Below the pieces are notes generated by a model, which did no database searches, was not told where the DNA came from, and was given only the letters and a program-made list of their open reading frames with translations. From IMG/VR virus record IMGVR_UViG_3300028581_000013: a DNA stretch of 64,000 nucleotides; one strand, 5' to 3'. A program made the translations under genes and the position numbers. Below are positions 10,577-31,576 of this stretch, in pieces. Origin of the DNA: a virus. How positions within the stretch are numbered: position 1 is the first letter of the stretch; each line of letters opens with the position of its first letter.

Positions 10577-10918
10577 ATGGCAACACAAATTCCATTAAAT
10601 ACATTTAAAACAACAACAGCCAACGTTACAACGTCAACGACAACCGTATATACCACACCTGCTGGTGTAACAACTGTTGTTCTGTTGACACAAGTTTCAA
10701 ATATTGATCCTACTAATTCTGTAACTGTTTCGGCTAACCATGTTCGTAGTGGTAATTCAGTATCACTTATTAAAAATACAACCATACCTGTTAGTGATGC
10801 TGCAAGTCTGTTAACTGGTAAATTAATATTACAAACTGGAGATTCATTCTCAATTAGTGCTAGTGCAAACGACAGAGCACAATTGGTATTATCTTATCTC
10901 GAAACTGCTAACGCTTAA
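10577..10918 (+). CDS. Small beta-sandwich adaptor-like virion protein (paralog 1)
   Basis: TVYT.P...V.N...IP....L.L..GD...LSYLE; similar to 15176 and 32300. Confidence 0.65.
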   Translation: MATQIPLNTFKTTTANVTTSTTTVYTTPAGVTTVVLLTQVSNIDPTNSVTVSANHVRSGNSVSLIKNTTIPVSDAASLLTGKLILQTGDSFSISASANDRAQLVLSYLETANA

Positions 10919-10926
10919 TATAAAAC

Positions 10927-12006
10927 ATGTCGACCAAATCCAGATTAATTAGTGGCCGTGTACCTGTAACTAGTGCAGCTAACGTTGCAGCTAATAGATA
11001 TCAATACTTAGACCTAAGTTCTGCTGAGCCAAATCTTGGTACAGGTAATACTGGTGATGTATTAATTTATGATAGTACATTTCCAGGTGGTCGTAAGTGG
11101 ACTGCTCAAGCTGAAATTCGTGGATCAATTGGTGAAGCTGCATACTCAGAGGCAAACACTGCTTCAGCAAATACATTATATCTCTCTGGTGTTGATGTTG
11201 CACAGAACACCAGACTTACAGCCGTAGAAACTAATGCACAAGCAGCCTTTAATGCTGCCAATACAAAGTTGTCATCTTCAGGTGGTACAATCACTGGATC
11301 ATTAAATGTATCACAAGATTTAGCCGTTACAGGAAACTTGACTGTACTAGGTACAACAACAACAATCAATACAACTTCATTTACTGTTATCGATTCTTTA
11401 ATAACATTAGGAACAGGAAATTATACATCCGATTTATTAGACATTGGTATTAGTGGTCACTACAATGATGGCACCAATGCACACACAGGATTCATAAGAG
11501 ATCCTGACACAAAAGAATGGTATGTATTTAAAGGTTATACTCCTGAAATTACTGCAAATAACAATGTTAATATTAACCATGCTTCATTTGCTAAAGCTAA
11601 TGTTAATGCAGACTACTTTAAAGGTAATGTAGCATTCCCGGATGGTACCACACAAACAACAGCTGCAACAGGCATAGATTCGTATGCTAGAACAACAGCA
11701 AACACCGTTTCTGCAAACACCATTTATACTCAAGGTGTTGATGTTACACAGAATACAAATATTACCAACATAAATTCTTTAGCACAAGCTGCTTTCAACA
11801 GAGCAAACTCTGGTGCTCGAGCAACATCAAGTAACACAGCACCTACAGGTAATACTGTTGGTGATTTATGGTTAAGTTTAACAGATGAAACATTGTATAT
11901 GTATTCATATGATGGTGTAAGTAATAATTGGATTGATATTTCTGGACCAATACTGATATCGTCCAATATTCTTGTTCAATACACCATCACATCTAATGTA
12001 AGTTAA
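10927..12006 (+). CDS. Tail fibre protein
   Basis: AEPNLG motif, GNLTV.GT.TT...DIG..GHY.DG..HTGF.RD segment shared with 5706, C-terminal GDLW module. Confidence 0.7.
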   Translation: MSTKSRLISGRVPVTSAANVAANRYQYLDLSSAEPNLGTGNTGDVLIYDSTFPGGRKWTAQAEIRGSIGEAAYSEANTASANTLYLSGVDVAQNTRLTAVETNAQAAFNAANTKLSSSGGTITGSLNVSQDLAVTGNLTVLGTTTTINTTSFTVIDSLITLGTGNYTSDLLDIGISGHYNDGTNAHTGFIRDPDTKEWYVFKGYTPEITANNNVNINHASFAKANVNADYFKGNVAFPDGTTQTTAATGIDSYARTTANTVSANTIYTQGVDVTQNTNITNINSLAQAAFNRANSGARATSSNTAPTGNTVGDLWLSLTDETLYMYSYDGVSNNWIDISGPILISSNILVQYTITSNVS

Positions 12007-12015
12007 GGATTAGAA

Positions 12016-13419
12016 ATGCCATTAAATGAAACCTCGAACACTACGGTACAATTTACAGTAACTACAACCAACACAGCCGATGGTACCACATTGTATTGGA
12101 AGACCACGGGTAACACCACCAATTCGGATATTGTTGGCGGTAATACGGGTTCTATTACAGTTACAAATAATCGTGCTGTATGGAATGTAACAATTTCAGC
12201 GGATGATGCTACAGATGGAACTAAAACTTTAGGTATTCAAATTCTTACTGGCTCATTAGATGGTACACCAGTAGTAAATACCGCAAGCCCAATTGTAATT
12301 ACTGATACCTCTCAAACACCAGACTATGGTTATTTGTATACATGGGGTAATAACACATACGGAGTTTTAGGTACCGGAGGTGGGGGTGTTTTAAGTCCAG
12401 TTCAAGTTGGATCTCTAACAACTTGGATGAATATTTCTGCTGGTCACAATCATACTATATCAAAAAAATCTGATTATACTTTGTGGGCTTGGGGATTTAA
12501 CGGTAACGGACAATTGGGTAACAATAGTATAACTTCAGTAGGTAGTCCTATACAAATTGGAAGCGCTACGAATTGGAATAAAGTTTCAGCCGGATACAAT
12601 ACTTCATTTGCAATCAAAGACAACGGCACATTATGGGCTTGGGGTGATAATTCATATAGACAATCAGGTATAGGATATGGAGGACCTGGTTATTTTACCT
12701 ATGTACCAACACAAGTAGGATCATTAACAACTTGGGCAGAGGTTGTCGGTGGATATACTCACACATTAGCAGTTAAAAACGATGGTACCTTGTGGGTTTG
12801 GGGTACAAATGGAAATCCAAGTAATACTGGTGCTTTAGGATTAAATGAATCTAGCCCATATGTAATAACAGATAGTCCTGTGCAAAATGGATCATCAACA
12901 AATTGGTCAAAAGTTTCCGCTGGAACTCGAAATAGTGCAGCAATTAAAACTGATGGAACATTGTGGACTTGGGGAGCTCCAGGACTATCTCTTGGTCATA
13001 ACACTACATCTCATAGGTCCAGTCCAACACAAGTCGGAACAGGAACAAATTGGTCAAACGTTTCTATGAGTGGTGATAGAGCTCTAGCAATCAAAACCGA
13101 TGGAACACTATGGGCATGGGGAAATAATAATCGAGGCCAATTAGGTACAAATAACACAAATAATTATTCCAGTCCTGTTCAGATAGGAACCGATACAACT
13201 TGGCGTGAAGTTTTTTGTGGTAAAAATAATGAATTTACACTAGCAACTAAAACAAATGGTACATTATGGTCTTGGGGATTGGGCAATGCAGGTGGCGGCA
13301 CCAGTCCGTTAGGATTGGGTTCAACCACTAGTAGATCAAGTCCCGTTCAAGTCGGAACAGGAACAACTTGGTTGCGAGCCACATCCACTCTATATGCTGG
13401 CCTGGCTATATTAGGTTAA
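12016..13419 (+). CDS. RCC1/BLIP-II repeat beta-propeller with N-terminal Calx-beta-like domain
   Basis: About 7 repeats of AIK.DGTLW.WG.N..G.LG....SP.Q(V/I)G..T.W. Confidence 0.85.
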   Translation: MPLNETSNTTVQFTVTTTNTADGTTLYWKTTGNTTNSDIVGGNTGSITVTNNRAVWNVTISADDATDGTKTLGIQILTGSLDGTPVVNTASPIVITDTSQTPDYGYLYTWGNNTYGVLGTGGGGVLSPVQVGSLTTWMNISAGHNHTISKKSDYTLWAWGFNGNGQLGNNSITSVGSPIQIGSATNWNKVSAGYNTSFAIKDNGTLWAWGDNSYRQSGIGYGGPGYFTYVPTQVGSLTTWAEVVGGYTHTLAVKNDGTLWVWGTNGNPSNTGALGLNESSPYVITDSPVQNGSSTNWSKVSAGTRNSAAIKTDGTLWTWGAPGLSLGHNTTSHRSSPTQVGTGTNWSNVSMSGDRALAIKTDGTLWAWGNNNRGQLGTNNTNNYSSPVQIGTDTTWREVFCGKNNEFTLATKTNGTLWSWGLGNAGGGTSPLGLGSTTSRSSPVQVGTGTTWLRATSTLYAGLAILG

Positions 13420-13439: not shown

Positions 13440-13802
13440 ATGAGTCATTTTGCAAAAGTAGAAGATGGAACAGTAACGCAAGTTATTGTTATTGAGCAAG
13501 ATGTTTTAAACACCGGACATTGGGGTGACCCAGCATCTTGGGTGCAAACATCATACAACACACACGGTGGTGTTCACGCTAATGGTGGAACTCCATTAAG
13601 AAAGAACTTTGCTGGTATTGGTTACGCATACGATGCTGGTCGTGATGCATTTATTCCGCCAAAGCCATTCAATTCATGGGTATTGAATGAAGATACTTGT
13701 CTGTGGGATGCACCAACACCAATGCCTGTAGAAGAAGGTAAAATGTTTGTTTGGGATGAAGATACAACATCTTGGGTAGAATTTGTTCCACCAACAGAAT
13801 AA
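13440..13802 (+). CDS. Conserved phage protein found with fibre tip genes
   Basis: MSHFAK...V..VIV...W.QTSYN...RKNFAGIG..YD...DAF..P.P..SW pattern; AGGAG RBS. Confidence 0.7.
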   Translation: MSHFAKVEDGTVTQVIVIEQDVLNTGHWGDPASWVQTSYNTHGGVHANGGTPLRKNFAGIGYAYDAGRDAFIPPKPFNSWVLNEDTCLWDAPTPMPVEEGKMFVWDEDTTSWVEFVPPTE

Positions 13803-13827: not shown

Positions 13828-15165
13828 ATGGCATTTCCAACCTCACCGGCAAATAATCAAACCGCTCTAGTAAACGGCATTGTTTATCAATGGAATGCTG
13901 CGCTTGGTGCTTGGAAAAGAAACGGTTCAATTAACTCCGCTACTATCGGCCAATTAGTTTTATCTTCAGGACAAATCTCCACATCAAATGTATCAGGCAC
14001 GTTAATCGTTTCTGGTGGTGTAGGCATCACAGGTAATTTATATACAGGTGGCATTTATGTTACTGGTGCCAATGGTATTACATTCTCAGATGGTTCGGTA
14101 CAAACATCTGCTGGCGCTTCAGCGGCCACAGGTGCAGCTGCTTTTGATCAAGCTAATGCGGCCAATCAATATGCTAATTCAGCTTATGCTCAAGCTAATG
14201 CAGCCAACTCTTTAGCTGGTTCAGCTTACGGCCAAGCAAACGCAGCCTTTGCACAAGCTAATGCGGCCAATCAATATGCTAATTCGGCCTTTGCAAAAGC
14301 CAATACTGTAGCCAGTGATTTAGCAAACTTTAGTTCTTTGTTTGCTGGTATTGAAGTAACACAAAATACTAGAATTGGTAATGCAGAAACACAAACACAA
14401 GCCGCTTTTGATAAAGCAAACTCAGCCAATGTACTGGCACAGGCAGCTTTCAATACAGCCAATACAAAATTCTCATCATCTGGTGGTACAATTACTGGTG
14501 ATACAGTAGTAACAGGAAACTTAACAATTACTGGTGCCACCGTATATGCAAACACAGAAAACTTAACTGTCAAAGATAACATCATTACATTGAATTCAAA
14601 TGTAACTGGTGCACCTTCTTTAAGTGCTGGTATTGAAGTCAATCGTGGTTCTTCTACCAATACAAAACTATTATGGTCTGAAGCCAATACGGCTTGGGAA
14701 TTTACCAACAACGGAACAACTTACGAAAAGATTGCTGGACTAACATACGTTCAAGCAGCCTTTAATGCAGCTAACACTGCTGGTGGTGCTGATACATTTG
14801 CTAGACAAACAGCCAATGCTGCATTCACTCAAGCTAATACAGCAACAACATTAGCACAAGCAGCCTTTAATAAAGCAAACACATCTGATGCCGTATTAAC
14901 TTCTACTGTTGATACATTCACAGGTGATGGTTCAACTGTTGCATACACATTATCAACAACACCAGCAACTATTAACTATACAACGGCTGTGATTGGTGGT
15001 GTTACACAACCAAGGTCTGCTTACTCTGTTGTTGGAACAACACTTACATTTACCTCTGCACCAGCCAATACTCAGATTATAGAAGTAACAACAATTGGTA
15101 CATCCAATACCACACTATATACAGTTAATAATATTATTAGTCCATTCTTATTGATGGGCGCTTAA
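13828..15165 (+). CDS. Tail fibre/stalk protein
   Basis: N-terminal FPTSP..Q..NG..YQW module, AxxAN coiled coil, one FTGDG..Y.L domain, ends PFLLMGA. Confidence 0.7.
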   Translation: MAFPTSPANNQTALVNGIVYQWNAALGAWKRNGSINSATIGQLVLSSGQISTSNVSGTLIVSGGVGITGNLYTGGIYVTGANGITFSDGSVQTSAGASAATGAAAFDQANAANQYANSAYAQANAANSLAGSAYGQANAAFAQANAANQYANSAFAKANTVASDLANFSSLFAGIEVTQNTRIGNAETQTQAAFDKANSANVLAQAAFNTANTKFSSSGGTITGDTVVTGNLTITGATVYANTENLTVKDNIITLNSNVTGAPSLSAGIEVNRGSSTNTKLLWSEANTAWEFTNNGTTYEKIAGLTYVQAAFNAANTAGGADTFARQTANAAFTQANTATTLAQAAFNKANTSDAVLTSTVDTFTGDGSTVAYTLSTTPATINYTTAVIGGVTQPRSAYSVVGTTLTFTSAPANTQIIEVTTIGTSNTTLYTVNNIISPFLLMGA

Positions 15166-15175
15166 AGGAAATAAA

Positions 15176-15505
15176 ATGCCAATAACATATAAAGTTCTAG
15201 GACAAATTAACCCAACAGCACACACAGCAACAACTGTGTATACTGTGCCATCTCTTACAAGTACCATATTGAGTACTGTTACAGTATGTAATCAGGCAAA
15301 CACAGGTGCTACATTTAGATTGGCTGTTCGGCCATCTGGTGAAGCACTTGCAGCTAAACATTATATTAACTATGATACTCCCGTTCCAGGTAATGATACT
15401 GTTTCGTTAACACTCGGTATTACATTGGCTGCTACAGATGTTCTTACTGCCAATGCAAATACTTCTTTTGTAAGCATCAATGCATATGGTAGTGAGATTA
15501 GTTAA
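15176..15505 (+). CDS. Small beta-sandwich adaptor-like protein (paralog 2)
   Basis: YKVLGQ..P....TVYTVP...VCNQ...GITLA..DV...GSEI. Confidence 0.7.
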   Translation: MPITYKVLGQINPTAHTATTVYTVPSLTSTILSTVTVCNQANTGATFRLAVRPSGEALAAKHYINYDTPVPGNDTVSLTLGITLAATDVLTANANTSFVSINAYGSEIS

Positions 15506-17373
15506 TGGCAATTACAACAGCAAGCCAATCTCAGATAGGACAAGAAACAGCCAAGAATAGTCAGATTGTTACAACATCTGTCAGATTGGTAAATTCTGGT
15601 GCGTCTACAGGTCCTTCTATTTCATCTATTGTTGTAACTGATAGTGGTTATAATACTTTAGATGATACGGCTGCTGCAATCAGCAATTCATATATTCGTA
15701 TTCTTGGTAGTAATTTCACTTCAACAGCGAATGTGTTTCTTAATGGTACGATGATACCAACAGCCAATGTTACATTTGTAAATTCATCAGAATTGAGAGC
15801 TCAATTACCTGTTTCAAACACAGGAAACTATGCAGTATCGGTTTACAATTCAAATTCATCAGGTGCTTTATACTCTAGTTCATTTGTTATTTCAACCATG
15901 CCACAATGGTTAACATCAACAACTTTAGCTAATGTAACATCTAATATTGCATTTTCTAATACATTATCCGCAACATCAGATTCATCAGTTACATACTCGA
16001 ATACCACAATACTACCAACAGGCTTTAATTTATTGTCCAATGGATATTATTATGGTACCATAACATCAGCTAATACTTATTCATTTGGTGTTAAAGCTAC
16101 AGATGTTGAAAATCAAGATTCTACCAGAACATTTAATTTAACTGTCAGTGCTTTTTTACCTGTGCCGACATCGATTGACTATTTGTTAATAGCAGGTGGT
16201 GGTGCAGGCGGAGGTTCTGGAACTGGTGGTACAGTTGATGGTGCCGGTGGTGGCGCTGGCGGTTGGTTAGAAGGAACAATAACAGGAAGTGGATTGGCTT
16301 ATACTGTTACGATAGGTGCTGGTGGTGCTTCAGGTTCACAAAGAGGTGACAATTCGACTTTAGCTAATTCTTCTATAACACGACTCACTTATGGTGGAGG
16401 TATGGGTGGCGGTGCAGGATCATCACAACCTTATTCTTATAATGGCCAAGATGGAGGTTCAGGTGGTGGCGGAGGAATACACAGCGGCGTAACAAATGTA
16501 GGAAATTCCATACAAACAAGTAATAATGGCGGAACTGGATATGGAAATGCTGGAGGCGCAAACCAAACCGGAGCTCCATATACTGGAGGTGGTGGTGGTG
16601 GAGCTGGAGCAGTAGGTGTTTCTGGAACTAGCGGAGGTGCTGGCGGTGCTGGAAAACAATGGTTAGATGGAACTTATTATGCTGGTGGTGGAGGTACAGG
16701 ATCTAACAGCTATGGAGCCGTTAACGGTCTTGGTGGCACCGGTGGTGGTGGCACAGGAGGCACTAGTGCTGGTTCAACAAATACTGGAGGAGGCGGTGGT
16801 GGTAGAATGTTTGCCGGTGGATCTGGTGTTTGTATATTCAGGTATCCTGATTCATTTGCACTTGCAACTTCAACAACTGGATCACCAACAGTAACAACTT
16901 CTGGTGGATACAGATATTATAAATTTACTTCTTCTGGAGCAATTACGTTTTTGCAATCATATAGATATTTTAGAGTAACATTAAATTCAGTAAATGGTGG
17001 CGGCTCGCAAGCTCAATTAACAGAATTATCATTTAGAGATAGTGCTGGAAATTATATCACACAAACATTATCTTCTCCTGTAGCTCCTAGTGCTGGATCA
17101 TTAACAAATCTGAATAATCAAAATGCTACAGCGCTGGACGATACTAATATGAATCCTCTGCCATTTGTAGTTGATTACGATATGGGATCTGAAAAATATG
17201 TAGGTACTGATGTAAAATTTTTACGAATAGGTAGTTCAGATGATTCTACCCGATATGTAAGTAATATAACAGTTAGTGCAAGTAATGATAATTTGAATTT
17301 TACAGAAATAATTAGTGGTACTCCGCCTAGTTATGCTGGTATAAGAGTGCTACAAAATTGGGCAATAGCTTAA
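15505..17373 (+). CDS. IPT/Ig plus glycine-rich tip protein with C-terminal discoidin-like domain
   Basis: IPT-like ILGSNF...ELRAQLP, DYLLIAGGG..GG, YAGGGG and GGSG.CIFRYP motifs. Confidence 0.7.
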   Translation: MAITTASQSQIGQETAKNSQIVTTSVRLVNSGASTGPSISSIVVTDSGYNTLDDTAAAISNSYIRILGSNFTSTANVFLNGTMIPTANVTFVNSSELRAQLPVSNTGNYAVSVYNSNSSGALYSSSFVISTMPQWLTSTTLANVTSNIAFSNTLSATSDSSVTYSNTTILPTGFNLLSNGYYYGTITSANTYSFGVKATDVENQDSTRTFNLTVSAFLPVPTSIDYLLIAGGGAGGGSGTGGTVDGAGGGAGGWLEGTITGSGLAYTVTIGAGGASGSQRGDNSTLANSSITRLTYGGGMGGGAGSSQPYSYNGQDGGSGGGGGIHSGVTNVGNSIQTSNNGGTGYGNAGGANQTGAPYTGGGGGGAGAVGVSGTSGGAGGAGKQWLDGTYYAGGGGTGSNSYGAVNGLGGTGGGGTGGTSAGSTNTGGGGGGRMFAGGSGVCIFRYPDSFALATSTTGSPTVTTSGGYRYYKFTSSGAITFLQSYRYFRVTLNSVNGGGSQAQLTELSFRDSAGNYITQTLSSPVAPSAGSLTNLNNQNATALDDTNMNPLPFVVDYDMGSEKYVGTDVKFLRIGSSDDSTRYVSNITVSASNDNLNFTEIISGTPPSYAGIRVLQNWAIA

Positions 17374-17416
17374 TTACAAAACAAATAAATAAACAATAAG
17401 AATAAAAGGTTTGTAA

Positions 17417-18481
17417 ATGCCAATATTAAAAATACTACCAGATGCAATCAGTAACACAGCAAGTTTTGTGTTTGGTAATGTTACTACCACTTCGATTACT
17501 GCTAATGGTGTGGATCTTGGTACAGCCGTTGCAGAAGCTTTTGTGTTGGCCAATACTGCAACCAATAATATTACAATTATTCAAGGTGTAAACACAGCAC
17601 AAAATACACGTATGTCAATCATCGAGGGTGTTGATACCACACAGAATACAAATATCACCATACTACAAGGTGTAGACACAACTCAAAACACCAATATAAC
17701 TGCTGCTGATACGAAAGCACAAGCTGCATTTAATAAAGCCAACGATGCTTACACTTTAGCCAATACAGCAAATGCAGCCGCAGGTTCAGGTGGTGCAGGT
17801 GGTGGTAGTTTAACTTCATTCACTGCAACAGTAGATACATTTACAGGTAATGGTAGTCAAACACAATTTACATTGTCTGCTGTGCCTGATTCTGAAGATA
17901 ACACATTTGTATTTTTAAATGGTGTCTATCAAGAAAAAGGCACATATTCTATCGCTGCTGCAAATGTTATTCTTACAGGCGTAGCAACAGCCAATGATAC
18001 AATAGAAGTGACCACAGTTGCTGGTAGTATTATGAATGTAAGCCCTACTGCTTACTCAACACGAATTTATCAAGGTAACGGATCAACCAACACATTTACA
18101 ATTTCAGTTGGACACACCGCAAATACAGTCATGGTGTTTAACAATGGTGTGTGTCAATTCCCTGGTGATGATTATACAGTAAGTGGTACAACATTAACCT
18201 ATGTGTTAACTCCACAATCAGATGAAACCATACAGATTCGTGAGATGCCAACTAATAAGTTGGTGCCATTAACACAACCTGTAATGCGTAGATACACAGC
18301 AAATGGTGCACAAACCTTATTTACTGTAACAGCAGGTCAAACAGCCAACTCAATGTTTGTATATGAAAACGGTATCTGTCAAGTGCCTGTATCAGATTAC
18401 ACAGTAAGTGGAGTAACATTAACATTTGTAACCGCACCAGTAGCCAATGTGGTCGTTCAAATTAGAGAGATGTCAATCTAA
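17417..18481 (+). CDS. Fibre hub-like protein with three tandem F.GNG..F.L domains
   Basis: Three GVxxxQNT repeats, then three ~63-aa repeats (GNG...F...NG.(C/Y)Q...Y.(V/I)...). Confidence 0.7.
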   Translation: MPILKILPDAISNTASFVFGNVTTTSITANGVDLGTAVAEAFVLANTATNNITIIQGVNTAQNTRMSIIEGVDTTQNTNITILQGVDTTQNTNITAADTKAQAAFNKANDAYTLANTANAAAGSGGAGGGSLTSFTATVDTFTGNGSQTQFTLSAVPDSEDNTFVFLNGVYQEKGTYSIAAANVILTGVATANDTIEVTTVAGSIMNVSPTAYSTRIYQGNGSTNTFTISVGHTANTVMVFNNGVCQFPGDDYTVSGTTLTYVLTPQSDETIQIREMPTNKLVPLTQPVMRRYTANGAQTLFTVTAGQTANSMFVYENGICQVPVSDYTVSGVTLTFVTAPVANVVVQIREMSI

Positions 18482-18490
18482 GGATAAAAA

Positions 18491-20215
18491 ATGGCGTTTA
18501 CACAAATAACAACATCAAATTTAGATAATACAATTACTACAAAGTTAGCGGCAGCCGAAGCAGCCAATGCAGCCGTTGCAAACATTGTTTCTTTGGCCAT
18601 TAGTAGTGTGCAAATTGCCGATTCATCTTATAATGTTATAGATGATACAGCAGCTAATACAGGTGGTGGTTATTTGGTAATTAACGGAACGGGTTTTACG
18701 AATCAGTCTGTTGTTATTGTTGGTACGACTAATGCTACTAGTACCACATTTGCAAATACAAAACAGTTACGAGCTCAAGTTCCTGGCTTGGCTGCAGCAT
18801 CATATCCTTTATATGTGGTTGATAGTGTCACTGGTGCAACAGCAATTAAAGTAAATGGTATAACATACAGTTCATTTCCAGCATGGTCAACTGGATCATC
18901 GTTAAGTAATCAATCATCAAATGTAGCCTTCTCAGTTAGTTTAAGTGCAAACTCCGATTCATCAATAACTTATTCCAATACTACAGCATTACCAGCTGGT
19001 ACAACATTAGCTGCTAACGGATATTTTTCTGGTACAGTTTCTATTGGTGCTCAGACCACATATTCATTTGATGTGAAAGCCACCGATGCTGAAAATCAGG
19101 ATGTTTCTAGAACATTTAGCTTAACTGTCACAGTAATACCACAAACAAAATTATGGTTATGGGGTTCTGGTAGTTATGGAAAATTAGGTCAAAATAGTGA
19201 AACAAGTTATTCCAGTCCTGTTCAAGTTGGTTCAGGTACTACATGGAATAATATAGGAGCGGCCAATCATTATTTTGACAGCACACATACTTTAGCAACA
19301 AAAACGGATGGCACACTTTGGTCATGGGGTCGTAATAGTTATGGCCAATTAGGACAAAATAATACAGTTAATAGATCCAGTCCAATTCAAGTAGGAACAG
19401 GAACAAATTGGAACAGAGTAGCAGTAGGACCGCTTCATTCTTTAGCTACAAAAACTGATGGCACCTTGTGGTCTTGGGGAGTTACCAATGACGGCCGGTT
19501 AGGTGATGGCATTGGTAGTGGTAGTTATAAATCCAGTCCTGTTCAAGTTGGTTCAGGTACTACATGGAATCTAATATTAGCTTCAGAAAAAAATGGTTTG
19601 GCCACAAAAACTGATGGCACACTTTGGTCATGGGGCCATAATGGTTCTGGACAAATAGGAAACTTTAATACAACCACACAAACAACTCCACAGTTAATAG
19701 ATGGATCAGTATGGAGTTCGATAGCTCTTGGTGGTGCTCATTGTTTAGCTGTTAGATCAACAGATAATACTCTTTACGCATGGGGAAATAATGATACGGG
19801 CCAGCTAGGACGTAATAACGTGTCCAACGTTTCTAATCTAAGTCAAGTTGCAGGAACAACTTGGAGTAAAGTGGCTGCAGCTCAGAACCATAGTTTTGCA
19901 ATTAAAACTGATGGCACTTTATGGGCATGGGGAATGAATGCTTATGGTCAATTAGGAATTAACAATACAATTTATAGATCCAGTCCGGTTCAAGTAGGAA
20001 CAAATACAAATTGGAGTGAAATAAGCACCGGCCAAACACATGCTATAGCAATTAAAACTGATGGCACTCTTTGGTCATGGGGAGATGGTAGTAATGGAAA
20101 ACGAGGATTAAATTCAGGTATATCATCAAGTAGTCCAGTTCAAATAGGAACAAATACAAATTGGAGTAAAATTGTAGGTGGACATTCTCACACAATAGCT
20201 ATTACCTCAAATTAA
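18491..20215 (+). CDS. RCC1-repeat propeller with IPT and Ig-like N-terminal domains
   Basis: KTDGTLWSWG repeats; N-terminal DSSYN..DDTAANT.GGY. Confidence 0.85.
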   Translation: MAFTQITTSNLDNTITTKLAAAEAANAAVANIVSLAISSVQIADSSYNVIDDTAANTGGGYLVINGTGFTNQSVVIVGTTNATSTTFANTKQLRAQVPGLAAASYPLYVVDSVTGATAIKVNGITYSSFPAWSTGSSLSNQSSNVAFSVSLSANSDSSITYSNTTALPAGTTLAANGYFSGTVSIGAQTTYSFDVKATDAENQDVSRTFSLTVTVIPQTKLWLWGSGSYGKLGQNSETSYSSPVQVGSGTTWNNIGAANHYFDSTHTLATKTDGTLWSWGRNSYGQLGQNNTVNRSSPIQVGTGTNWNRVAVGPLHSLATKTDGTLWSWGVTNDGRLGDGIGSGSYKSSPVQVGSGTTWNLILASEKNGLATKTDGTLWSWGHNGSGQIGNFNTTTQTTPQLIDGSVWSSIALGGAHCLAVRSTDNTLYAWGNNDTGQLGRNNVSNVSNLSQVAGTTWSKVAAAQNHSFAIKTDGTLWAWGMNAYGQLGINNTIYRSSPVQVGTNTNWSEISTGQTHAIAIKTDGTLWSWGDGSNGKRGLNSGISSSSPVQIGTNTNWSKIVGGHSHTIAITSN

Positions 20216-20221
20216 TTTCAA

Positions 20222-21772
20222 ATGACTCAATATGTCCGTGCGATTAATATTGCAAACAACTCAATCAAGTCTTTTGTATTTGATTCTGGTGTAGCAAACA
20301 CATTTAATGCCGCAGGTATTGCTAATGATTTGGCAATTGCTGCCAATGTGGCCGCACAAGCAGTTAATACATTTGTTACATTACAAACTCAAGAGCTTGC
20401 CGCTTTGCCTCCAACAATTAATGTAGTATCAGTTACAGATTCATCTTATAATGTTCTAAATATTGCCGAAGCCAATACCACCGGTGCATACTTACAAATT
20501 ACAGGTTCCAATTTTCAATCCGGCGCAATTGTTGTGGTTGGATCCAGTAACACCGCATTAACAACCACATTGGTGAATTCATCCACACTTAGAGCACAGA
20601 TTCCAGCCATCTCATCAGGAACTTATCCTGTATATGTGGTGAATAGTAGTGGCGGTACTGCAATTCGACCAAGAGGTTTAATAACAAGTGATTTTCCTGG
20701 TAGTCAATTGTCTAATCTATGGGGATGGGGAGAAAATTTTTTTGGACAATTAGGCACAAATGATGCAATTGCTAGGTCCAGTCCTGTTCAAATTGGTGAA
20801 GCTTATTTGTGGTCAAACGCTACTAGTGGAGCTGCACATACATTACTTTTAAAAGGAAAATCACCAACAAAAACTTTGTGGGCGATGGGTCGAAATTTTC
20901 GTGGTAACTTAGGATTAAATGATATAATTAATAGGTCCAGTCCAACTCAAATTGGTACAGGAAATTGGTCTTCCATAAGCATTGGTTATTATTTTTCTGC
21001 AGGCATTAAAACTGATGGTACATTGTGGACATGGGGTTATGGTAATTATGGCGCTTTAGGATTAAATAGTATAACCGATAGGTCCAGTCCAACTCAAGTT
21101 GGCACAATGACAAATTGGGCTCAAATTAAAACTGCAGCATACAATCTTTATGCTATTAAAACCGATGGCACGGCATGGGCTTGGGGTCCAGGATATGCAA
21201 TTGGCAACAATTCGACAATTGATAGGTCCTCTCCGGTCCAAATTGGTGCGTTAACAAATTGGTTAAAATTCTCCGAAAGTCCTTGTGATACGGCCTATCC
21301 TGCAGCTATTAAAACAGATGGTACACTATGGGTATGGGGATCAAATTCTTTAGGCGAACTTGGATTAAATAACAAAATTAATAGGTCCAGTCCGGTACAA
21401 ATAGGTACAGGTACTTGGAATACAATTTCAACATCAAGAAATTCTGTAGGTATTAAAACTGATGGCACACTATGGACTTGGGGATGGAATAATACCGAAT
21501 ATGGATCATTAGGTTTAAATGATTCAATTCAGAGATCCAGTCCAGTTCAAGTTGGAGTAGAAACAACTTGGTTAAATGCCGTGTGTGATTATCATGGAGT
21601 AACGGCATTAAAATCTAACGGCACACTATGGTCTTGGGGAAATAACGGTAATGGTCAATTAGGACAAAACGATATAAATAACAGATCCAGTCCTGTTCAA
21701 ATTGGAACAGCAACAGATTGGAGTGAAGTATATGCTGGACACTACTCATCAATCGCAAAAAGAAATGCATAA
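20222..21772 (+). CDS. RCC1-repeat propeller with IPT domain
   Basis: RSSP.QIG and IKTDGTLW.WG repeats; lacks the second Ig-like domain of its paralogs. Confidence 0.85.
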   Translation: MTQYVRAINIANNSIKSFVFDSGVANTFNAAGIANDLAIAANVAAQAVNTFVTLQTQELAALPPTINVVSVTDSSYNVLNIAEANTTGAYLQITGSNFQSGAIVVVGSSNTALTTTLVNSSTLRAQIPAISSGTYPVYVVNSSGGTAIRPRGLITSDFPGSQLSNLWGWGENFFGQLGTNDAIARSSPVQIGEAYLWSNATSGAAHTLLLKGKSPTKTLWAMGRNFRGNLGLNDIINRSSPTQIGTGNWSSISIGYYFSAGIKTDGTLWTWGYGNYGALGLNSITDRSSPTQVGTMTNWAQIKTAAYNLYAIKTDGTAWAWGPGYAIGNNSTIDRSSPVQIGALTNWLKFSESPCDTAYPAAIKTDGTLWVWGSNSLGELGLNNKINRSSPVQIGTGTWNTISTSRNSVGIKTDGTLWTWGWNNTEYGSLGLNDSIQRSSPVQVGVETTWLNAVCDYHGVTALKSNGTLWSWGNNGNGQLGQNDINNRSSPVQIGTATDWSEVYAGHYSSIAKRNA

Positions 21773-21777
21773 ATTAC

Positions 21778-23586
21778 ATGGCAAAAATAACAGCAAACAA
21801 TATCCTCGCATCATCAATTACTTCAGATAAACTTGATTCATCTGTTGCAAGTGGTTTAGCTACTGCAACTAATGCAAACACTCTTGCAACTATTGCTACT
21901 GCTGTGGCAGCTGCTGCTTTTGCAACTGCAAATACCAATGCAGCCATACTGGCAAACTCAGCATCTCCACTAATTACTACAATTCAAATTGCAGATTCAT
22001 CTTATAATATTTTAGATGATACGGCAGCCAATACTACTGGTGGATATGTTGTTATTACTGGATCAGGATTTACCAATAGTTCAACTGTGGTATTTGGATC
22101 AACTGCGGCTCCTGCGGTATCTTTTGTAAATTCAACAACACTCAGAGCACAAGTTCCAGCACTCACAGCGGCTTCATATCCTGTATATGTCGTTAACAGT
22201 AATGGAGGTACAGGTATTCGAATTAATGGATTGACAACAAGTTCATTCCCAGCATGGAGCACCGGTGCAACATTAAGTAACCAAAATGCCAATACATCTT
22301 TTTCTGTTAATCTGAGCGCAAACTCCGATTCATCAATAACTTATGCAAACACCACATCGCTACCTGCTGGTACTACATTGGCCGCTAACGGATTATTTTC
22401 TGGTATTGTAACAATTGGTACACAAACAACTTACACATTCGATGTGAAAGCAACTGACGTTGAAAATCAAGATGCAAGTCGTACATTTAGTTTGACGGTA
22501 ACGATAGGTCCAGCGCCAGGATTATATGTGTGGGGTTTTCATTCTGGGAATGGAGAAGATGGATTAAATATTGGTTCTTCTTCTAAATCCAGTCCAACAC
22601 AAGTAGGAACAGATACAAATTGGAATCAAATAAGTACGGCAAGGTATTCTGTGTTGGCCACCAAAACTGATGGTACCCTATGGTCATGGGGAAATAATAG
22701 TAATGGTCAATTAGGACATAATGATCGAGTCAATAGATCCAGTCCTGTACAAATTGGAACAAATACCAATTGGTCATTGATAAGTATCAGCCCCTATTTC
22801 TTTGCAGCTATCAAAACCGATGGTACTTTATGGACATGGGGACAAAATGATTCTGGTCAACATGGCCGCAATGATAGAGTTAACCGATCTAGTCCAGTTC
22901 AAGTATCAGGAACTACTTGGAGTAAAATAGGTGTTGGTCGAGTGGGAGTTGTATCGGCCACCAAAACTGATGGTACTTTATGGATGTGGGGAATTAACGA
23001 AGAAGGCCAATTAGGAAGAAATGATAGAGTTACCCGATCCAGTCCAATACAAGTAGGATCAGATACAACTTGGAGTCAAGCAAAACTCGGAGATAATTAT
23101 ACTATAGCCACCAAAACTAATGGCACACTATGGAGTTGGGGATATAATAACAATGGCCAATTAGGAAGAAATGATACAGTTCGTAGGTCGAGTCCAGTAC
23201 AAATTGGAGCAAATACCAATTGGAGTTTAAATAATTTTGTTATCGGTGCACCCGGTCCTATACAAGCAGCTACTAAAACTGATGGTACTTTATGGACATG
23301 GGGAAAAAATGATTTTGGCCAATTAGGACACAATAATCGAGGTGTTTATAGATCCAGTCCAACACAAGTAGGAACAGAAACAAATTGGAGTTTAATTAGT
23401 GGAGGTGCGTATAGTTTTACGGCCACCAAAACAGATGGCACATTGTGGTCTTGGGGACAAAATAATTATGGCCAATTAGGAAGAAATGATAAAGTTACCC
23501 GATCCAGTCCAATACAAGTAGGATCAGCAACAAATTGGACTTTAGTTAGTATGGGGCCTTACGCCGGGTTTGCCAAATTATCATAG
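21778..23586 (+). CDS. RCC1-repeat propeller with IPT and Ig-like domains
   Basis: ATKTDGTLW.WG.N..GQLG.ND repeats. Confidence 0.85.
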   Translation: MAKITANNILASSITSDKLDSSVASGLATATNANTLATIATAVAAAAFATANTNAAILANSASPLITTIQIADSSYNILDDTAANTTGGYVVITGSGFTNSSTVVFGSTAAPAVSFVNSTTLRAQVPALTAASYPVYVVNSNGGTGIRINGLTTSSFPAWSTGATLSNQNANTSFSVNLSANSDSSITYANTTSLPAGTTLAANGLFSGIVTIGTQTTYTFDVKATDVENQDASRTFSLTVTIGPAPGLYVWGFHSGNGEDGLNIGSSSKSSPTQVGTDTNWNQISTARYSVLATKTDGTLWSWGNNSNGQLGHNDRVNRSSPVQIGTNTNWSLISISPYFFAAIKTDGTLWTWGQNDSGQHGRNDRVNRSSPVQVSGTTWSKIGVGRVGVVSATKTDGTLWMWGINEEGQLGRNDRVTRSSPIQVGSDTTWSQAKLGDNYTIATKTNGTLWSWGYNNNGQLGRNDTVRRSSPVQIGANTNWSLNNFVIGAPGPIQAATKTDGTLWTWGKNDFGQLGHNNRGVYRSSPTQVGTETNWSLISGGAYSFTATKTDGTLWSWGQNNYGQLGRNDKVTRSSPIQVGSATNWTLVSMGPYAGFAKLS

Positions 23587-23680: not shown

Positions 23681-25441
23681 GTGAAAAACATATATTTTCT
23701 TTCAGGACTTCCACGTTCTGGTTCAACAGTATTGGCTGCTATTCTTAGCCAAAATCCAAGCATTCATGCCACATCCACTTCTAATCTTTTAGATACCCTA
23801 GTAGGTACTCTAAGAGCATGGGCTGATAGTTTGACCACTAGAGCTCAAACGGATCAGAAAAAGGAAGAAGAAAAGATTCAGCATGTTTTAAATAACATCT
23901 GTAAAACTCAATATCATGACATTGATAAACCCATCATTCTTGATAAAGCTAGAGGTTGGGCTGATGATACGAACATGCGTACCATGTCTAAAGTTCTTGG
24001 ACATAAACCTAAAATTATTGCCACAGTTCGTAATGTAGAAGATTGTGCCGCTTCTTTTGTTCGTGTGGCTAAACCAAAAAATTTGGATCATTTTTTACTC
24101 AAAGATGACCTGATTAAACACCTCAAAGAATCATATCAAACATTTGAAAAAGGATATTCATTTGCACCTGAATGTTTTTTAATTATTGACTATGATGATC
24201 TGATGAATGATCCACAAAAAGAATTAAAACGAGTTCATGAGTTTTTAGAATTACCAGATTTTGAATATGATTTAAATGCCATTGATGGTACCAATCTACA
24301 AGAAAAAGATGAAGAAATTTGGGAAGTAAAAGGCCTTCATGATGTTAAACCAAAATTAGGTTATCAACACAAAGAAGATTCTAAAGATGTATTGAAGCAT
24401 CGTTATTATGAATTCGTACAACCAAGATTTTGGTTAGGAGAAAAAGTTGCCAATAAACCTATTCACGACCTTGATTTACAGTTGGCTGCTGGTCTAATGG
24501 GTAACTTTGAAGAAGGTTGGAAGATAGCACAGAAATTAGAGAAAGAAGAACCATGGAATAATCGTGCCGCTTTTAATCGTGGTTGGTATCTCATGCAACA
24601 TGGTAAACTTTTAGAAGGTGAAAAACTATTGTTCCGTGGTCGTGACGAAGGAGTGTTTGGTAATGAACCACCAAAATCACCAATGCCAATGTGGGACGGC
24701 AAATCAAAAGGTACCGTATTATTAAATCTAGAAGGTGGATTAGGTGACCAGATACACGGAGTTCGTTACGCAAGGGATATTGCAAAGATTGCTGGAGAAG
24801 TGATTGTGGCGTGTTCCGGTTCGTTGGCGACACTATTCCGTGATATAGAAGGAGTCGTGGCGGTCTGCCAGAGTGATGCTGTATATGGTATTGTACATGA
24901 TTATTGGGCACCATCCATGTCCACGATACCCATTCTTGGTTACGAATACAAGGACATATCAGGAAAACCATACATAAATAAACCATTAGTAGAACCACAT
25001 AAAGGTTTGAGAATCGGTCTACGGTGGCAAGGTAATCCACAGTTCGAACATGAACAACATCGGATATTCCCACCAACAAAACTATTTGATGCCTTAGAAG
25101 ATGTTGATGCAGAATTTATATCACTGCAACGAGATGAGGGTTCTCAATACAAACCATATTGGGTAAAAGAAGTACCACTAGGTCATTGGGAAGAAACACG
25201 AATAGCGGCTGCATCATGTGATTTAATTATCACATCATGTACCTCTGTTGCACATCTCTGTGGTGCCATGGGAATACCAACATGGATTGTAGTACCTAAA
25301 TTGCCTTACTATTTGTGGGCTCCACCAGGAAACACAACAGTCTGGTATGATTCGGTGAAGCTGTATCGCCAAGAAGTATTTGGAGAATGGTCTGCTCCAT
25401 TTGATCAGATCAAAGTCGATTTACAAAATTTTAAAAAGTAA
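23681..25441 (+). CDS. Sulfotransferase-TPR-glycosyltransferase (GT9-like) fusion
   Basis: GLPRSGST PAPS-binding loop, YDDLM.DP, TPR-like helices, W.G...EGGLGD.I, ISLQ, DLIITSCTSVAHLCGAMG.PTW, WYDSV.LYRQ. Confidence 0.85.
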   Translation: MKNIYFLSGLPRSGSTVLAAILSQNPSIHATSTSNLLDTLVGTLRAWADSLTTRAQTDQKKEEEKIQHVLNNICKTQYHDIDKPIILDKARGWADDTNMRTMSKVLGHKPKIIATVRNVEDCAASFVRVAKPKNLDHFLLKDDLIKHLKESYQTFEKGYSFAPECFLIIDYDDLMNDPQKELKRVHEFLELPDFEYDLNAIDGTNLQEKDEEIWEVKGLHDVKPKLGYQHKEDSKDVLKHRYYEFVQPRFWLGEKVANKPIHDLDLQLAAGLMGNFEEGWKIAQKLEKEEPWNNRAAFNRGWYLMQHGKLLEGEKLLFRGRDEGVFGNEPPKSPMPMWDGKSKGTVLLNLEGGLGDQIHGVRYARDIAKIAGEVIVACSGSLATLFRDIEGVVAVCQSDAVYGIVHDYWAPSMSTIPILGYEYKDISGKPYINKPLVEPHKGLRIGLRWQGNPQFEHEQHRIFPPTKLFDALEDVDAEFISLQRDEGSQYKPYWVKEVPLGHWEETRIAAASCDLIITSCTSVAHLCGAMGIPTWIVVPKLPYYLWAPPGNTTVWYDSVKLYRQEVFGEWSAPFDQIKVDLQNFKK

Positions 25442-25453
25442 TAGGAGATAGTA

Positions 25454-25876
25454 ATGCCAACAAGATCAGGTTATAATGTTCGAGTTCAGAATGGTAAGGT
25501 AACAGATTGCTGGGATACACCAGCACCAGAAGGTCAATCCGGTTGGAGTGCAGCCGTAGAGATTACTCCAGACCTCACACCTAACCGTGAAATTCTTACA
25601 ACACATACATTTGATATTACCAAAAATCCAATTGAGATTGTTTGGGGTAAGCGTGAGTTGTCAGTTGATGAGCGTAAAGGTTCTTTAATTGGTCAAGCCA
25701 ATTTTGAAGTAATTCGTTTAGAAAACCAATTGCAAATGAAGCGTAATATACCAGAGTTTGCTGACCAAATCTCCACACTTGAAGCTGAAATTGAAGCCGC
25801 CAAGTCAACTAGAGATGCTCGTGTTATTCAAGTTAATGCAGCCGCTACACATGAGGATGTTGACGCACTAATGTAA
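25454..25876 (+). CDS. Hypothetical protein (possible fibre assembly factor)
   Basis: AGGAG RBS; helical C-terminus; no firm family. Confidence 0.55.
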   Translation: MPTRSGYNVRVQNGKVTDCWDTPAPEGQSGWSAAVEITPDLTPNREILTTHTFDITKNPIEIVWGKRELSVDERKGSLIGQANFEVIRLENQLQMKRNIPEFADQISTLEAEIEAAKSTRDARVIQVNAAATHEDVDALM

Positions 25877-25893
25877 TTTTTTGAAAGTTTGTT

Positions 25894-29848: not shown

Positions 29849-31576
29849 ATGACCACAAAGATTCTTGGAAACCAGATCACCAGTTACACAATTGACACAG
29901 TACAATTAAGTAATACAGCCACGGCAGCCTTTGCCAAAACACTAGCACCTAAAGTTCTCTATGCCAACGTGGCCAGTAATACCTTTACAGTATTAAATGA
30001 TACAGCGGTTAACGTAGGTGGTGGTTACATTGTTGTTACTGGTGCCGAATTTCAATCTGGTGCCACCATATTAATCGACACAACTCCTGCTTCAGCCGTT
30101 ACATATGTAAATTCAACAACACTACAAGTTCAAGTTCCTACAAAATCAGCGGCATCTTATAATCTTTATGTGGTTAATCCTGATGGTGGCGTTGGTATTA
30201 AAGTTGCTGGTATCACATACAGCTCTGAACCTTCTTGGATCACTGCAAGTCCATTGGCAAATCAAGAAGCCAATACAGCCTTTGGTGTTAACCTTAGTGC
30301 TACTAGTGCAACATCTTATTCTTTAGCAGCCGGCTCTACATTACCAACCGGTACAACATTAGCTGCCAACGGATATTTCTCTGGTACAGTTTCTATTGGT
30401 GCTCAAACCACATACACATTTAGTGTTGTAGCTACAGATGCTGAGTTACAAGATTCAAGCAAAACATTCCAAGTAACTGTGACACTAACACCGCTGACAA
30501 GATTATATTCTTGGGGTATGAATGGATTTGGTGTTGGAGGTTTAAATACAAGTGGGGGATACACGCTTAGTCCAACACAAGTAGGAACAGGAACAACTTG
30601 GAAGTCAGTAAGTAGCCGTGCAACCAATTCTGCAGCTATCAGAAACGATGGTACTCTATGGACTTGGGGATACAATACTAATGGCCAGTTAGGTCATAAT
30701 GATACAGTTTACGCCAGATCCAGCCCAACACAGGTAGGAACAGCAACAACATGGAACCTTGTTAGTGTTGGTAACTACAGTATTATGGCCACCAAGACTG
30801 ACGGCACCTTGTGGTCCTGGGGCGTTAACACACAAGGACAGTTAGGACTTGGTAATACAGTTGCCAGATCCAGTCCAGTACAAGTAGGAGCAGGAACAGA
30901 TTGGTACCGTATTGACACTTCTTCAGCATCTTCTATTGCTATCAAAACTGATGGCACATTGTGGGCTTGGGGCCAAGGCTACATGGGCAAATTAGGACTT
31001 GGCGATACAGTTGATAGATCCAGCCCCGTACAGGTGGGTGCAAATACCACGTGGAATAGAATAAGTATTAGCACCTCTCAGTGTTTAGCTATTAAGACTG
31101 ACGGTACCTTGTGGGCATGGGGCAGAAATGACAACTACGGTTCTTTAGGACTCAACGAAATTTCAACTTATACAAAACTCAGTCCTACACAAATTGGTAC
31201 ATCAACTAATTGGAGTCTGGTTAGTGGTGGAGAGTATGGTTCTATGGCCACCAAGACTGACGGTACTTTGTGGACCTGGGGTCGCAATAATGTTGGACAG
31301 TTAGGACTCGGTAACATCAGTAATAGGTCCAGCCCAACACAGGTGGGAACAGGAACAAATTGGAATTTAATAAGTGCATCTTCAACCGGTAGTCAGAATA
31401 GATTGGCCACCAAGACAGATGGCACAATGTGGGCCTGGGGTGACAATAGTAACGGGCAGTTAGGACAAAATAATCAAACCAACCGATCCAGTCCTGTGCA
31501 AGTGGGAGCAAGCACCACGTGGAGTTTTATAAGTGCAGGACGAGGTGTTCTTGCCATTACTTCAATTGCTCCATAA
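29849..31576 (+). CDS. RCC1-repeat propeller with IPT and Ig-like domains
   Basis: Same architecture as 18491 and 21778. Confidence 0.85.
   Translation: MTTKILGNQITSYTIDTVQLSNTATAAFAKTLAPKVLYANVASNTFTVLNDTAVNVGGGYIVVTGAEFQSGATILIDTTPASAVTYVNSTTLQVQVPTKSAASYNLYVVNPDGGVGIKVAGITYSSEPSWITASPLANQEANTAFGVNLSATSATSYSLAAGSTLPTGTTLAANGYFSGTVSIGAQTTYTFSVVATDAELQDSSKTFQVTVTLTPLTRLYSWGMNGFGVGGLNTSGGYTLSPTQVGTGTTWKSVSSRATNSAAIRNDGTLWTWGYNTNGQLGHNDTVYARSSPTQVGTATTWNLVSVGNYSIMATKTDGTLWSWGVNTQGQLGLGNTVARSSPVQVGAGTDWYRIDTSSASSIAIKTDGTLWAWGQGYMGKLGLGDTVDRSSPVQVGANTTWNRISISTSQCLAIKTDGTLWAWGRNDNYGSLGLNEISTYTKLSPTQIGTSTNWSLVSGGEYGSMATKTDGTLWTWGRNNVGQLGLGNISNRSSPTQVGTGTNWNLISASSTGSQNRLATKTDGTMWAWGDNSNGQLGQNNQTNRSSPVQVGASTTWSFISAGRGVLAITSIAP

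Follow-up and report, generated by a model that had tools for sequence, protein, structure and literature searches.

Gene 17417 of the virus record IMGVR_UViG_3300028581_000013 encodes a fibre protein that ends in three tandem copies of a small docking-type domain, and it is directly followed by genes for fibre heads that begin with short, conserved peptides. The record is a single viral contig of 136,428 bp, estimated to be 82% complete, of which a stretch of 64 kb (the window) is described here; genes are named by their first position in it. The reading favoured here, at slightly better than even odds (about 0.55), is that 17417 is an adaptor fibre, or hub, with C-terminal tiers of domains that serve as docking sites for the N-termini of the heads encoded downstream.

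In such a mechanism, the hub would trimerise and its domain tiers would become trimeric platforms. These platforms would hold the heads by their conserved first ~20-40 residues, much as gp10 of T4 takes gp11 and gp12, tailspike protein TSP4 of phage CBA120 takes TSP1 and TSP2, and the receptor-binding protein RBP1 of phage KP32 takes a peptide of RBP2. The outcome would be one appendage with several different heads. The hub, which bears a plug here, would itself be suspended from the socket cassette of the stalk protein 13828.

Architecture of the hub and of the heads

The hub consists of a plug-type N-peptide, a shaft and three C-terminal docking domains, D1, D2 and D3 (Table 1). The shaft includes three QGVDTTQNTNIT-type repeats of 14 amino acids (aa) at aa 56-97 and helical segments at aa 34-51 and 88-123. 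Short linkers of ~6-14 aa join the domains, and the protein ends in ...QIREMSI. An earlier reading of the same DNA (the original prediction) had counted three copies of the domain in 17417 and one in 13828, and this count was borne out. The repeats are ~70 aa long, and a profile of the four copies recovered those four only (domain E values of 1e-30 to 1e-36; next best 0.13) in a search of the 136,428-bp genome that covered the listed open reading frames (ORFs) of the window strand. The domain of 13828 begins at nucleotide (nt) 14902; the stretch given with the original prediction starts at 14908. Pairwise identity among the four copies is 23-37%, with invariant columns G, T, G, Q and Y. In Pfam, the hub matches PF13799 (DUF4183/F-ENA) at aa 135-190 with an E value of 8.1e-6 and by a narrow margin (26.0 bits against a cut-off of 25.1), and several hub homologues likewise carry precomputed PF13799 hits.

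The three genes directly after the hub had been identified as RCC1 genes by the original prediction. This holds for them, and also for 29849: the propellers of 18491, 20222, 21778 and 29849 match PF00415 with E values of 1e-49 to 1e-57. Gene 12016 also encodes an RCC1 protein, and for the five proteins together the values are 1e-45 to 1e-57 for PF00415 and 196-260 bits for PF25390 (cut-off, 150). The heads 18491, 20222, 21778 and 29849 share an N-module of 130-215 aa, composed of the peptide, an Ala-rich helix of variable length, TIG and He_PIG (the last missing in 20222), at 40-65% identity. Gene 15505 has it as well; the similarity of the hub to this family is confined to its first ~20 aa. 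None of the head proteins has its own anchor domain, just the short conserved peptide. A tblastn search against cultured phages gave no match to the N-module of the heads; the propeller part alone does match.

Four classes of plug, defined on the first 6-20 residues, are conserved across phages: M-[APS]-F-T-[QK]-I (class F), M-T-Q-Y-[VI]-[RK] (class Y), M-A-[KR]-I-[TS]-x-N-N (class K) and M-T-T-[QK]-I (class T). For all four, a conserved N-peptide goes with a changing head, and in metagenomes the same N-module bears RCC1, Gly_rich_2 or Laminin_G_3 heads. Such variable heads on a constant stalk are classic head swapping. A plug profile made from distant phages only, with nothing from this phage group, ranks 21778, 29849, 17417, 18491 and 20222 at positions 1, 2, 5, 6 and 11 among 300 ORF N-termini of the genome. 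A profile made from close homologues was dropped because it was circular, with orthologues and two anchor-type sequences among its members. The original prediction had drawn attention to the likeness of these N-peptides and had quoted them correctly. By the profile ranks their weak similarity exceeds chance, but the heads have the whole module of 130-215 aa in common and not the peptide alone.

Pairing of domains and heads in related loci

Thirteen related loci, including the window, were compared (L001 and L085 are one locus). In 12 of the 13, the head block lies directly after the hub, the exception being the single-domain hub of L088. Three domains are followed directly downstream by three heads in the window, L001/L085, L084 and L090, by two heads in L002 and L087, by four in L089 and by five in L003. 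Two domains are followed by three heads in L086 and four domains by one head in L004, while a single domain is followed by two heads in L091 and L092 and by none in L088.

The identity of the domains is more informative about the heads. According to the domain tree, D1, D2 and D3 are orthologous positions that have been kept distinct across phages (support for the D2 clade, 100/97). In the two-domain hub it is D1 that has been lost, and where a hub has one domain, this is D2-like. Wherever D1 is present, the first head is of class F. All 13 loci agree in this respect: those with a D1-type domain have a class F head, and the four whose hubs lack D1 have none. Heads of classes K and Y are found even beside a lone D2-like domain. 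It seems that a socket accepts a class of plugs, namely class F in the case of D1 and classes K, Y and T in the case of D2/D3. Several plug classes clearly share one socket, because single-domain hubs precede two different heads and three-domain hubs up to five.

Hub homologues are common in aquatic metagenomes, where they are assembled from shuffled modules and, among the relatives, have one to four domains. Their N-termini are of an anchor type that starts MSFPLSPSNNQ... (as in 13828), of a second anchor type that starts MSTKSRLISGRV... (as in 10927), or of the plug type MPILKILP.... Their C-termini may be the domain array (ending in QIRE-M/L-S-I), a single domain followed by NNIISPFLLMGA, or other ends. 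The first ~20 aa are swapped between anchor and plug types, and most hubs have an anchor; the window hub has the ~20-aa MPILK plug instead. Consequently, the socket cassette of 13828 is its probable point of attachment. Stalks of the 13828 type, with one domain and the tail IISPFLLMGA, form a cassette with a 109-aa protein, a MAITTASQ head and an MPILK-plug protein. This cassette occurs in five of five loci with such a stalk and in none of four without one; orthologues of 13828 with the same C-terminal module are found in L002, L084, L086 and L090. The earlier claim that 13828 holds 17417 is thus in agreement with this co-occurrence, but the support is at the level of the cassette.

The hydrophobic tail of 13828 is conserved letter for letter in many relatives. 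Its core, I-I-S-P-F, fits the hook core of F-ENA, Ψ-Ψ-$-P-F (IIQPF in F-ENA). A similar tail, G-K-A-I-A-L/M-S-I-I-F-G-G, ends other fibres, namely 31650 (32250-32294) and, after DUF4183 domains, proteins of L047, L054 and L066. Tails of this kind could be self-capping or could be plugs directed at a partner.

The order of socket and plug in distant phages

A protein that ends in a docking domain and is followed, within at most 150 bp, by a gene that starts with a plug was found in 41 cases in viral contigs and in 37 cases in metagenome contigs. The socket proteins end, for instance, in IRYLRLT, IMVRYQL or IQIRELP, and the next genes start with MG-x-I-T-R-x-x-A-N-N, M-T-T-K-I-T-x-x-N, M-A-x-N-A-K-N-x-A-E-L-L or M-x-F-T-Q-I-T. 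When the plug profile that had ranked the ORFs of this genome, which derives from the viral-contig set, was applied to the metagenome set, 32 of 37 next genes scored above 5 bits, compared with 57 of 413 other ORFs (Mann-Whitney p 2e-16, for cases that are phylogenetically non-independent and in which a few contigs recur). The pairing is also seen in a cultured phage, Methylophilales phage Melnitz, where gene 170 ends in EIMVRYQL and gene 171 starts with MASKSK.

Many of the distant contigs (L006-L083 and L094-L173) also encode proteins of 150-270 aa that start with M-A/P-Y/F-I/L-G-x-x-P and continue at once with two or three DUF4183-like domains. Their N-terminus resembles the F-ENA hook, and plug-bearing fibre genes come next. 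These proteins look like split-off tail-fibre adaptors and, among phage proteins, could be the nearest equivalents of the F-ENA subunits.

Fold of the docking domain

An AlphaFold2 (AF2) model of the hub, made with an alignment of 49 sequences (mean predicted local distance difference test score, pLDDT, 76.7), contains three β-sandwich domains in which blocks of 10 residues mostly reach a pLDDT of 86-96 (block means about 81-96). Single domains match known docking and attachment modules. D1 superposes on XD2 of CBA120 TSP4 (7rfv) with a Z score of 9.8 and a root-mean-square deviation (rmsd) of 1.4 Å over 64 aa. Matches to the N-domains of the LME-1 and T7 tail fibres fall at Z 8.4-9.9 (LME-1, 9efk_AE, 9.9; T7 gp17, 8.4-8.8), followed by the fibre N-domain of cyanophage P-SCSP1u (8.0). 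Across two domains, the superposition reaches Z 8.4 for 7rfo and 7rej and 6.8 for T4 gp10 (5iv5_AC). D3 matches Gp48/49 of Shigella phage B2 (Z 9.0) and the neck of P74-26 (Z 7.0). The F-ENA matches are in the middling range of the tool, both for F-ENA-2 (9i65_E; Z 6.4, rmsd 2.5 Å, 70 aa) and for F-ENA-3 (9n0b_A; Z 5.9, rmsd 3.5 Å, 76 aa), and weaker ones occur among bacterial adhesin domains (UafA and Sgo0707, Z 5.4-5.6). A phmmer search of the PDB gave one hit (E 2e-9), the Klebsiella K1 capsule depolymerase 9k4a, where two such domains lie at aa 82-228, close to the N-terminus of this enzyme.

Several of the matched folds have known partners. The XD2 and XD3 domains of T4 gp10 hold gp11 and gp12, and those of CBA120 TSP4 hold TSP2 and TSP1 (PMC8825819). 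In F-ENA, a DUF4183 trimer accepts the seven-residue N-terminal hook of the next trimer, and the fibre is started by F-Anchor, a stalk with a C-terminal DUF4183 domain in which the hook of the next trimer is received (PMC12357932). The matched folds of gp10 XD2/XD3, TSP4, T7 gp17-N and F-ENA are modules that join trimeric fibre proteins, and it is plausible that the repeated domain described here is a member of the socket class.

Multimer models of the domains with the N-peptides had been proposed along with the original prediction. One pair was run, consisting of three copies of hub aa 130-354 and three copies of aa 1-40 of 18491, both with an alignment. The co-fold score was 0.59 (runs of 0.62, 0.59 and 0.53), compared with 0.00 for the best of three controls, which is graded as weak support. 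Of 80 solved complexes, 58 reach the mark for this grading, as do 2 of 110 mismatched pairs; scores of 0.60 or less were given by just 7 of the 80 solved complexes and by both mismatches that passed. Between runs, contact agreement was at least 91%, and the pLDDT of the partner was at least 75. When an unrelated protein took the place of the hub, the score was 0.00 and the pLDDT of the partner went down to 36. Taken alone, the co-fold is suggestive of docking of the 18491 N-terminus on the hub in the model.

Alternative explanations and the weight of the evidence

The same parts could also form a linear joint, in which the three tiers would stack coaxially as trimeric beads, the terminal tier alone would be the socket, and the heads would compete as alternative tips to give mixed, unbranched fibres. 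The trimers of F-ENA do stack axially and dock through N-terminal hooks (PMC12357932), the linkers between the hub domains are short, and the variable number of heads behind single-domain and three-domain hubs is easily accommodated by one socket with competing tips. Nevertheless, such a joint is unlikely: the orthologous positions D1, D2 and D3 have stayed distinct, the specificity between D1 and class F would be hard to explain with D1 buried in a stack, and in the gp10 and TSP4 XD domains, which are the best fold matches, every tier comes with a separate three-fold axis and a separate partner (PMC8825819). A branched geometry of the gp10/TSP4 kind is the better-supported form because of the link between D1 and class F and of these closest fold matches. 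Somewhat less probable than the linear joint is that the DUF4183 array does not hold heads at all. It would then be a spacer in a separate fibre, or the distal tip of one, and might bind a glycan of the host surface, while the RCC1 proteins would sit directly on the baseplate or be borne by other stalks. Receptor binding is a frequent role of small β-sandwich domains at the C-termini of fibres, and the matches to UafA and Sgo0707 would fit such a role, as would the uncorrelated counts of domains and heads and the position in a hypervariable host-recognition cluster with gene shuffling (PMC7029224). However, this would leave heads that carry a short conserved peptide and no anchor domain, together with a socket and next-gene plug that recur in 78 cases from distant phages, a co-fold score that depends on the hub, and fold matches of which the strongest are docking modules.

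The strict code of the original prediction, in which each domain grips one N-peptide by β-strand complementation and the number of domains fixes the number of heads, is hardly credible. It agrees with the three domains and three heads found in the window and in L001/L085, L084 and L090, its closest relatives, but the counts in the other relatives contradict a rule of one domain, one peptide and one gene, and the correlation between domain count and peptide-gene count that had been put forward as its test fails. In addition, the window encodes 29849 as a fourth head and 15505 as a fifth protein that has the N-module. Analogy with the solved systems also speaks against one domain gripping one peptide by strand complementation, as the binding unit there is a trimer of domains that takes a trimeric partner. 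What stands of the original prediction is a probable hub with RCC1 heads, which is consistent with a docking-type fold, synteny in 12 of 13 loci, the agreement of D1 and class F in 13 of 13 and the weak co-fold, but not its rule of one domain for one peptide.

Some observations weigh against the adaptor reading as well. Across the 13 loci, domain number and head-gene number are not correlated. The 13 loci are a small sample with phylogenetic links, so that the agreement of D1 and class F rests on about four independent losses. In most phages, synteny of neighbouring fibre genes is seen for products that touch and for products that do not. The AF2 monomer of the hub, with a predicted template modelling score (pTM) of 0.36, gives no usable inter-domain geometry and is silent on trimerisation and on the arrangement of the tiers. 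The single co-fold falls in the weak score band and came without interface output. Finally, the fold alone cannot tell the side of a joint, because the T7 gp17 N-domain uses the same fold as an attached end and not as a socket.

Comparison with known systems

The principle of a socket and an N-terminal peptide is already known. A branching domain together with a conserved N-terminal peptide has been established experimentally in KP32, CBA120 and T4 (PMC13352976, PMC8825819); therefore, the window does not contain a new kind of system, contrary to the suggestion of the original prediction that it was undescribed. In CBA120 TSP4/TSP2, and also in G7C gp66, tandem β-jellyroll modules of ~65 aa likewise occur in one fibre protein, a trimer there as is predicted for the hub; each tier of TSP4 takes a different trimeric receptor-binding protein, and XD2-XD3 build a branched tailspike complex (PMC8825819). 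In contrast, the modules of the hub are C-terminal, the hub has no receptor-binding body of its own, and there are three tiers instead of two, of the Pfam DUF4183 sequence family. The partners also differ, being tailspikes with D1-D2 heads in CBA120 and, presumably, TIG/He_PIG/RCC1 proteins with short plug peptides here.

T4 gp10 (PDB 5IV5) is a dedicated scaffold, as the hub would be, with XD2 and XD3 trimers that hold two other trimers, and the cluster occupies the position of T4 gp9-gp12, ahead of gp13/gp14. Unlike gp10, the hub is a fibre with a repeat-containing and helical shaft and has a plug in place of a baseplate anchor. A search of the genome record, at its 82% completeness, for PF07880 (T4_gp9_10_N) gave nothing at E <= 1. 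Because PF07880 models the N-terminal domain, this speaks against an orthologue of gp10 and not against XD-like domains.

In the Klebsiella phages KP32, K11 and KP34, RBP1 has a branching domain and RBP2 a conserved 29-aa peptide, and the joint was validated by deleting either of them (PMC13352976). The KP32 peptide can be transferred to foreign heads (PMC13352976), in parallel with the head swapping in the window family. KP32, a podovirus, has a single branching domain that takes a single partner, whereas the window hub has three domains; the few residues of the KP32 RBP2 peptide available for comparison have no sequence similarity to the window plugs.

F-ENA and F-Anchor of Bacillus and Clostridia (PDB 9HZE, 9I65 and 9N0B) belong to the same Pfam family as the hub domain. 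The hook motif of F-ENA, M-P-Ψ-Ψ-$-P-Ψ, docks in a groove of the preceding trimer, and F-Anchor-3 has a triad of DUF4183 domains in one chain (PMC12357932). The start of the hub, M-P-I-L-K-I-L-P, fits positions 1-5 of the hook and lacks the P at position 6; MP followed by two hydrophobic or Thr residues is found at the start of 3 of 300 ORFs in the genome. The starts of the heads (MAFTQ, MTQYV, MAKIT and MTTKI) do not fit the M-P hook. F-ENA forms homopolymeric fibres, of which the window cluster gives no sign. No literature that links DUF4183/F-ENA with phage fibres was found, and the F-ENA paper (PMC12357932) is silent on phages. As for T7, the N-domain of gp17 (PF03906) has the same fold as the hub domain, and PF03906 is annotated on some hub homologues. 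In many distant relatives, the domain comes right after an M-A/P-Y-I-G-x-x-P N-terminus; in T7 itself it is the attached end on the tail and not a socket at the far end of the fibre.

Compared with these systems, the new elements are the C-terminal triple DUF4183 array, the plug classes that co-vary with socket positions, the plug-bearing hub that implies a second level of branching, the breadth of the socket-then-plug order in aquatic phages and a sequence-level bridge to the F-ENA spore fibres. All of this could be extended to a complete code, in which D1 would take F and D2/D3 would take K, Y and T, each trimeric hub would carry up to three different trimeric propeller heads, and the hub would sit in 13828 through MPILK as the second level of a tree. 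Such docking would follow the same DUF4183 principle as F-ENA, which would imply that phage fibre joints and the endospore appendages of Firmicutes share an origin, and it would be a general joint across many marine phage lineages. As a whole, this extension is rather doubtful. If true, it would provide a readable assembly rule by which a protein that ends in a DUF4183/gp10-like domain is a socket and the first ~20 residues of the next gene are its plug. Appendages of uncultured phages could then be reconstructed from metagenomes. It would also explain the exchange of heads between phages and tie a phage branching domain to the F-ENA spore fibres.

Genomic setting and neighbouring genes

The large genes of the window are all on the + strand. 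Homologues of T4 gp13, gp14 and gp15 lie downstream of the fibre region, as do the terminase, sheath, tube, portal and major capsid genes. The major capsid protein shares ~65% identity with its counterparts in Methylophilales phage Melnitz and Pelagibacter phage Mosig, and 62-64% with those in Synechococcus myophages. At the nucleotide level, a megablast search of the region against cultured phages gave no matches. In T4-like pelagimyophages and cyanomyophages, a hypervariable "host recognition cluster" is located ahead of the neck genes; the aquatic T4-like phages of SAR11, OM43 and cyanobacteria have large clusters of this kind, with fibre proteins that are mostly unannotated, and the cluster of pelagimyophages is rich in glycosyltransferases (PMC7029224). 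As the fibre locus is upstream of the neck genes in a T4-like phage, it is inside the hypervariable host recognition cluster. The genes in question are the host-recognition genes of an uncultured aquatic T4-like myophage.

Table 1. Position of the main features of the fibre cluster in the window
Feature	Position	Strand	Description
Stalk protein 13828, 445 aa	13828..15165	+	anchor-type N-terminus (MAFPTSPANNQ...), Ala/Asn-rich shaft, one C-terminal DUF4183 domain
DUF4183 domain of 13828, aa 359-428	14902-15111	+	found with the repeat profile
Hydrophobic tail of 13828, last 18 aa	15112-15165	+	follows the DUF4183 domain; ends in NNIISPFLLMGA
Jellyroll protein 15176, 109 aa	15176..15505	+	eight-stranded (MPITYKVLGQ...); always after a 13828-type stalk; AF2 pLDDT 95
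Head protein 15505, 622 aa	15505..17373	+	common N-module (MAITTASQ..., TIG-like, He_PIG-like) and Gly_rich_2 head
Hub protein 17417, 354 aa	17417..18481	+	plug-type N-peptide MPILKILPDAI (~20 aa), shaft, three C-terminal docking domains
Docking domain D1, hub aa 137-206	17825..18034	+	profile E 5e-33; superposes on CBA120 TSP4 XD2
Docking domain D2, hub aa 213-283	18053..18265	+	profile E 7e-36; D2 clade support 100/97
Docking domain D3, hub aa 289-353	18281..18475	+	profile E 1e-32
Class F head 18491 (MAFTQITTSNL)	18491..20215	+	peptide, Ala-rich helix, TIG-like, He_PIG, RCC1 propeller
Class Y head 20222 (MTQYVRAINI)	20222..21772	+	peptide, long Ala-rich helix, TIG, RCC1 propeller; no He_PIG
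Class K head 21778 (MAKITANNI)	21778..23586	+	peptide, Ala-rich helix, TIG, He_PIG, RCC1 propeller
Class T head 29849 (MTTKILGNQI)	29849..31576	+	architecture of class K; 6 kb downstream, past the sulfo-/glycosyltransferase cluster

The 109-aa product of 15176 may be an adaptor. Its family has 2132 representative clusters, starts with M-A/P-x-T-Y-K-V-L-G-Q irrespective of the second residue, and is sometimes tandem-duplicated or fused N-terminally to proteins of 400-680 aa. In fold searches it matches generic viral jellyrolls only, such as the coat protein of satellite tobacco mosaic virus (STMV; template modelling score, TM, ~0.5) and Ena3A (TM 0.41). A role as an F-ENA-like subunit, with a hook and a jellyroll, was considered and rejected, as MPITYK is the first β-strand and the fold matches are generic. 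Weaker relatives lie at 10577-10918 (E 9e-5), after 8680-10572, and, marginally (E 0.13), at 32300-32674, after 31650; the family is also present in Melnitz.

A different rule for stalks and heads was also observed. After stalks that end in ...VQYTIT-S/A-NV-S or ...PTYLISANV-S/A, the next gene always encodes a head that starts with M-P/A-L/V-N-E...T-V/I-QYTV-x-TT. The pair 10927 and 12016 (10927-13419) is the example in the window, and there are at least eight such pairs in relatives (L002, L084-L086 and L088-L090). The resemblance between the end of the stalk and the start of the head suggests a joint of the strand type, unlike the DUF4183 socket.

A cluster of modification enzymes (23681-29789) is embedded among the RCC1 head genes. 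Its counterparts in relatives match Sulfotransfer_1, Glyco_transf_25, Methyltransf_24, a GT2-like family, UDP-galactopyranose mutase (GLF) and an APS-kinase-like family. It is kept in several relatives and is absent in L002, L086 and L090, and it agrees with the glycosyltransferase-rich host recognition cluster of pelagimyophages (PMC7029224).

Directly upstream of the fibre cluster, 8680-10572 encodes a protein of 630 aa that is conserved in relatives and has an Mtd_N domain (E 3e-14), the N-terminal domain of the major tropism determinant. Finally, a 120-aa protein (MSHFAKVEDGTVTQVIVIE...) is encoded between stalk-head pairs at 13440-13802 and has the same position in relatives. Phage Melnitz has two copies of it (MSHYAKVKDG... 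and MAHYAKIINGQ...), and it may be a fibre assembly factor.

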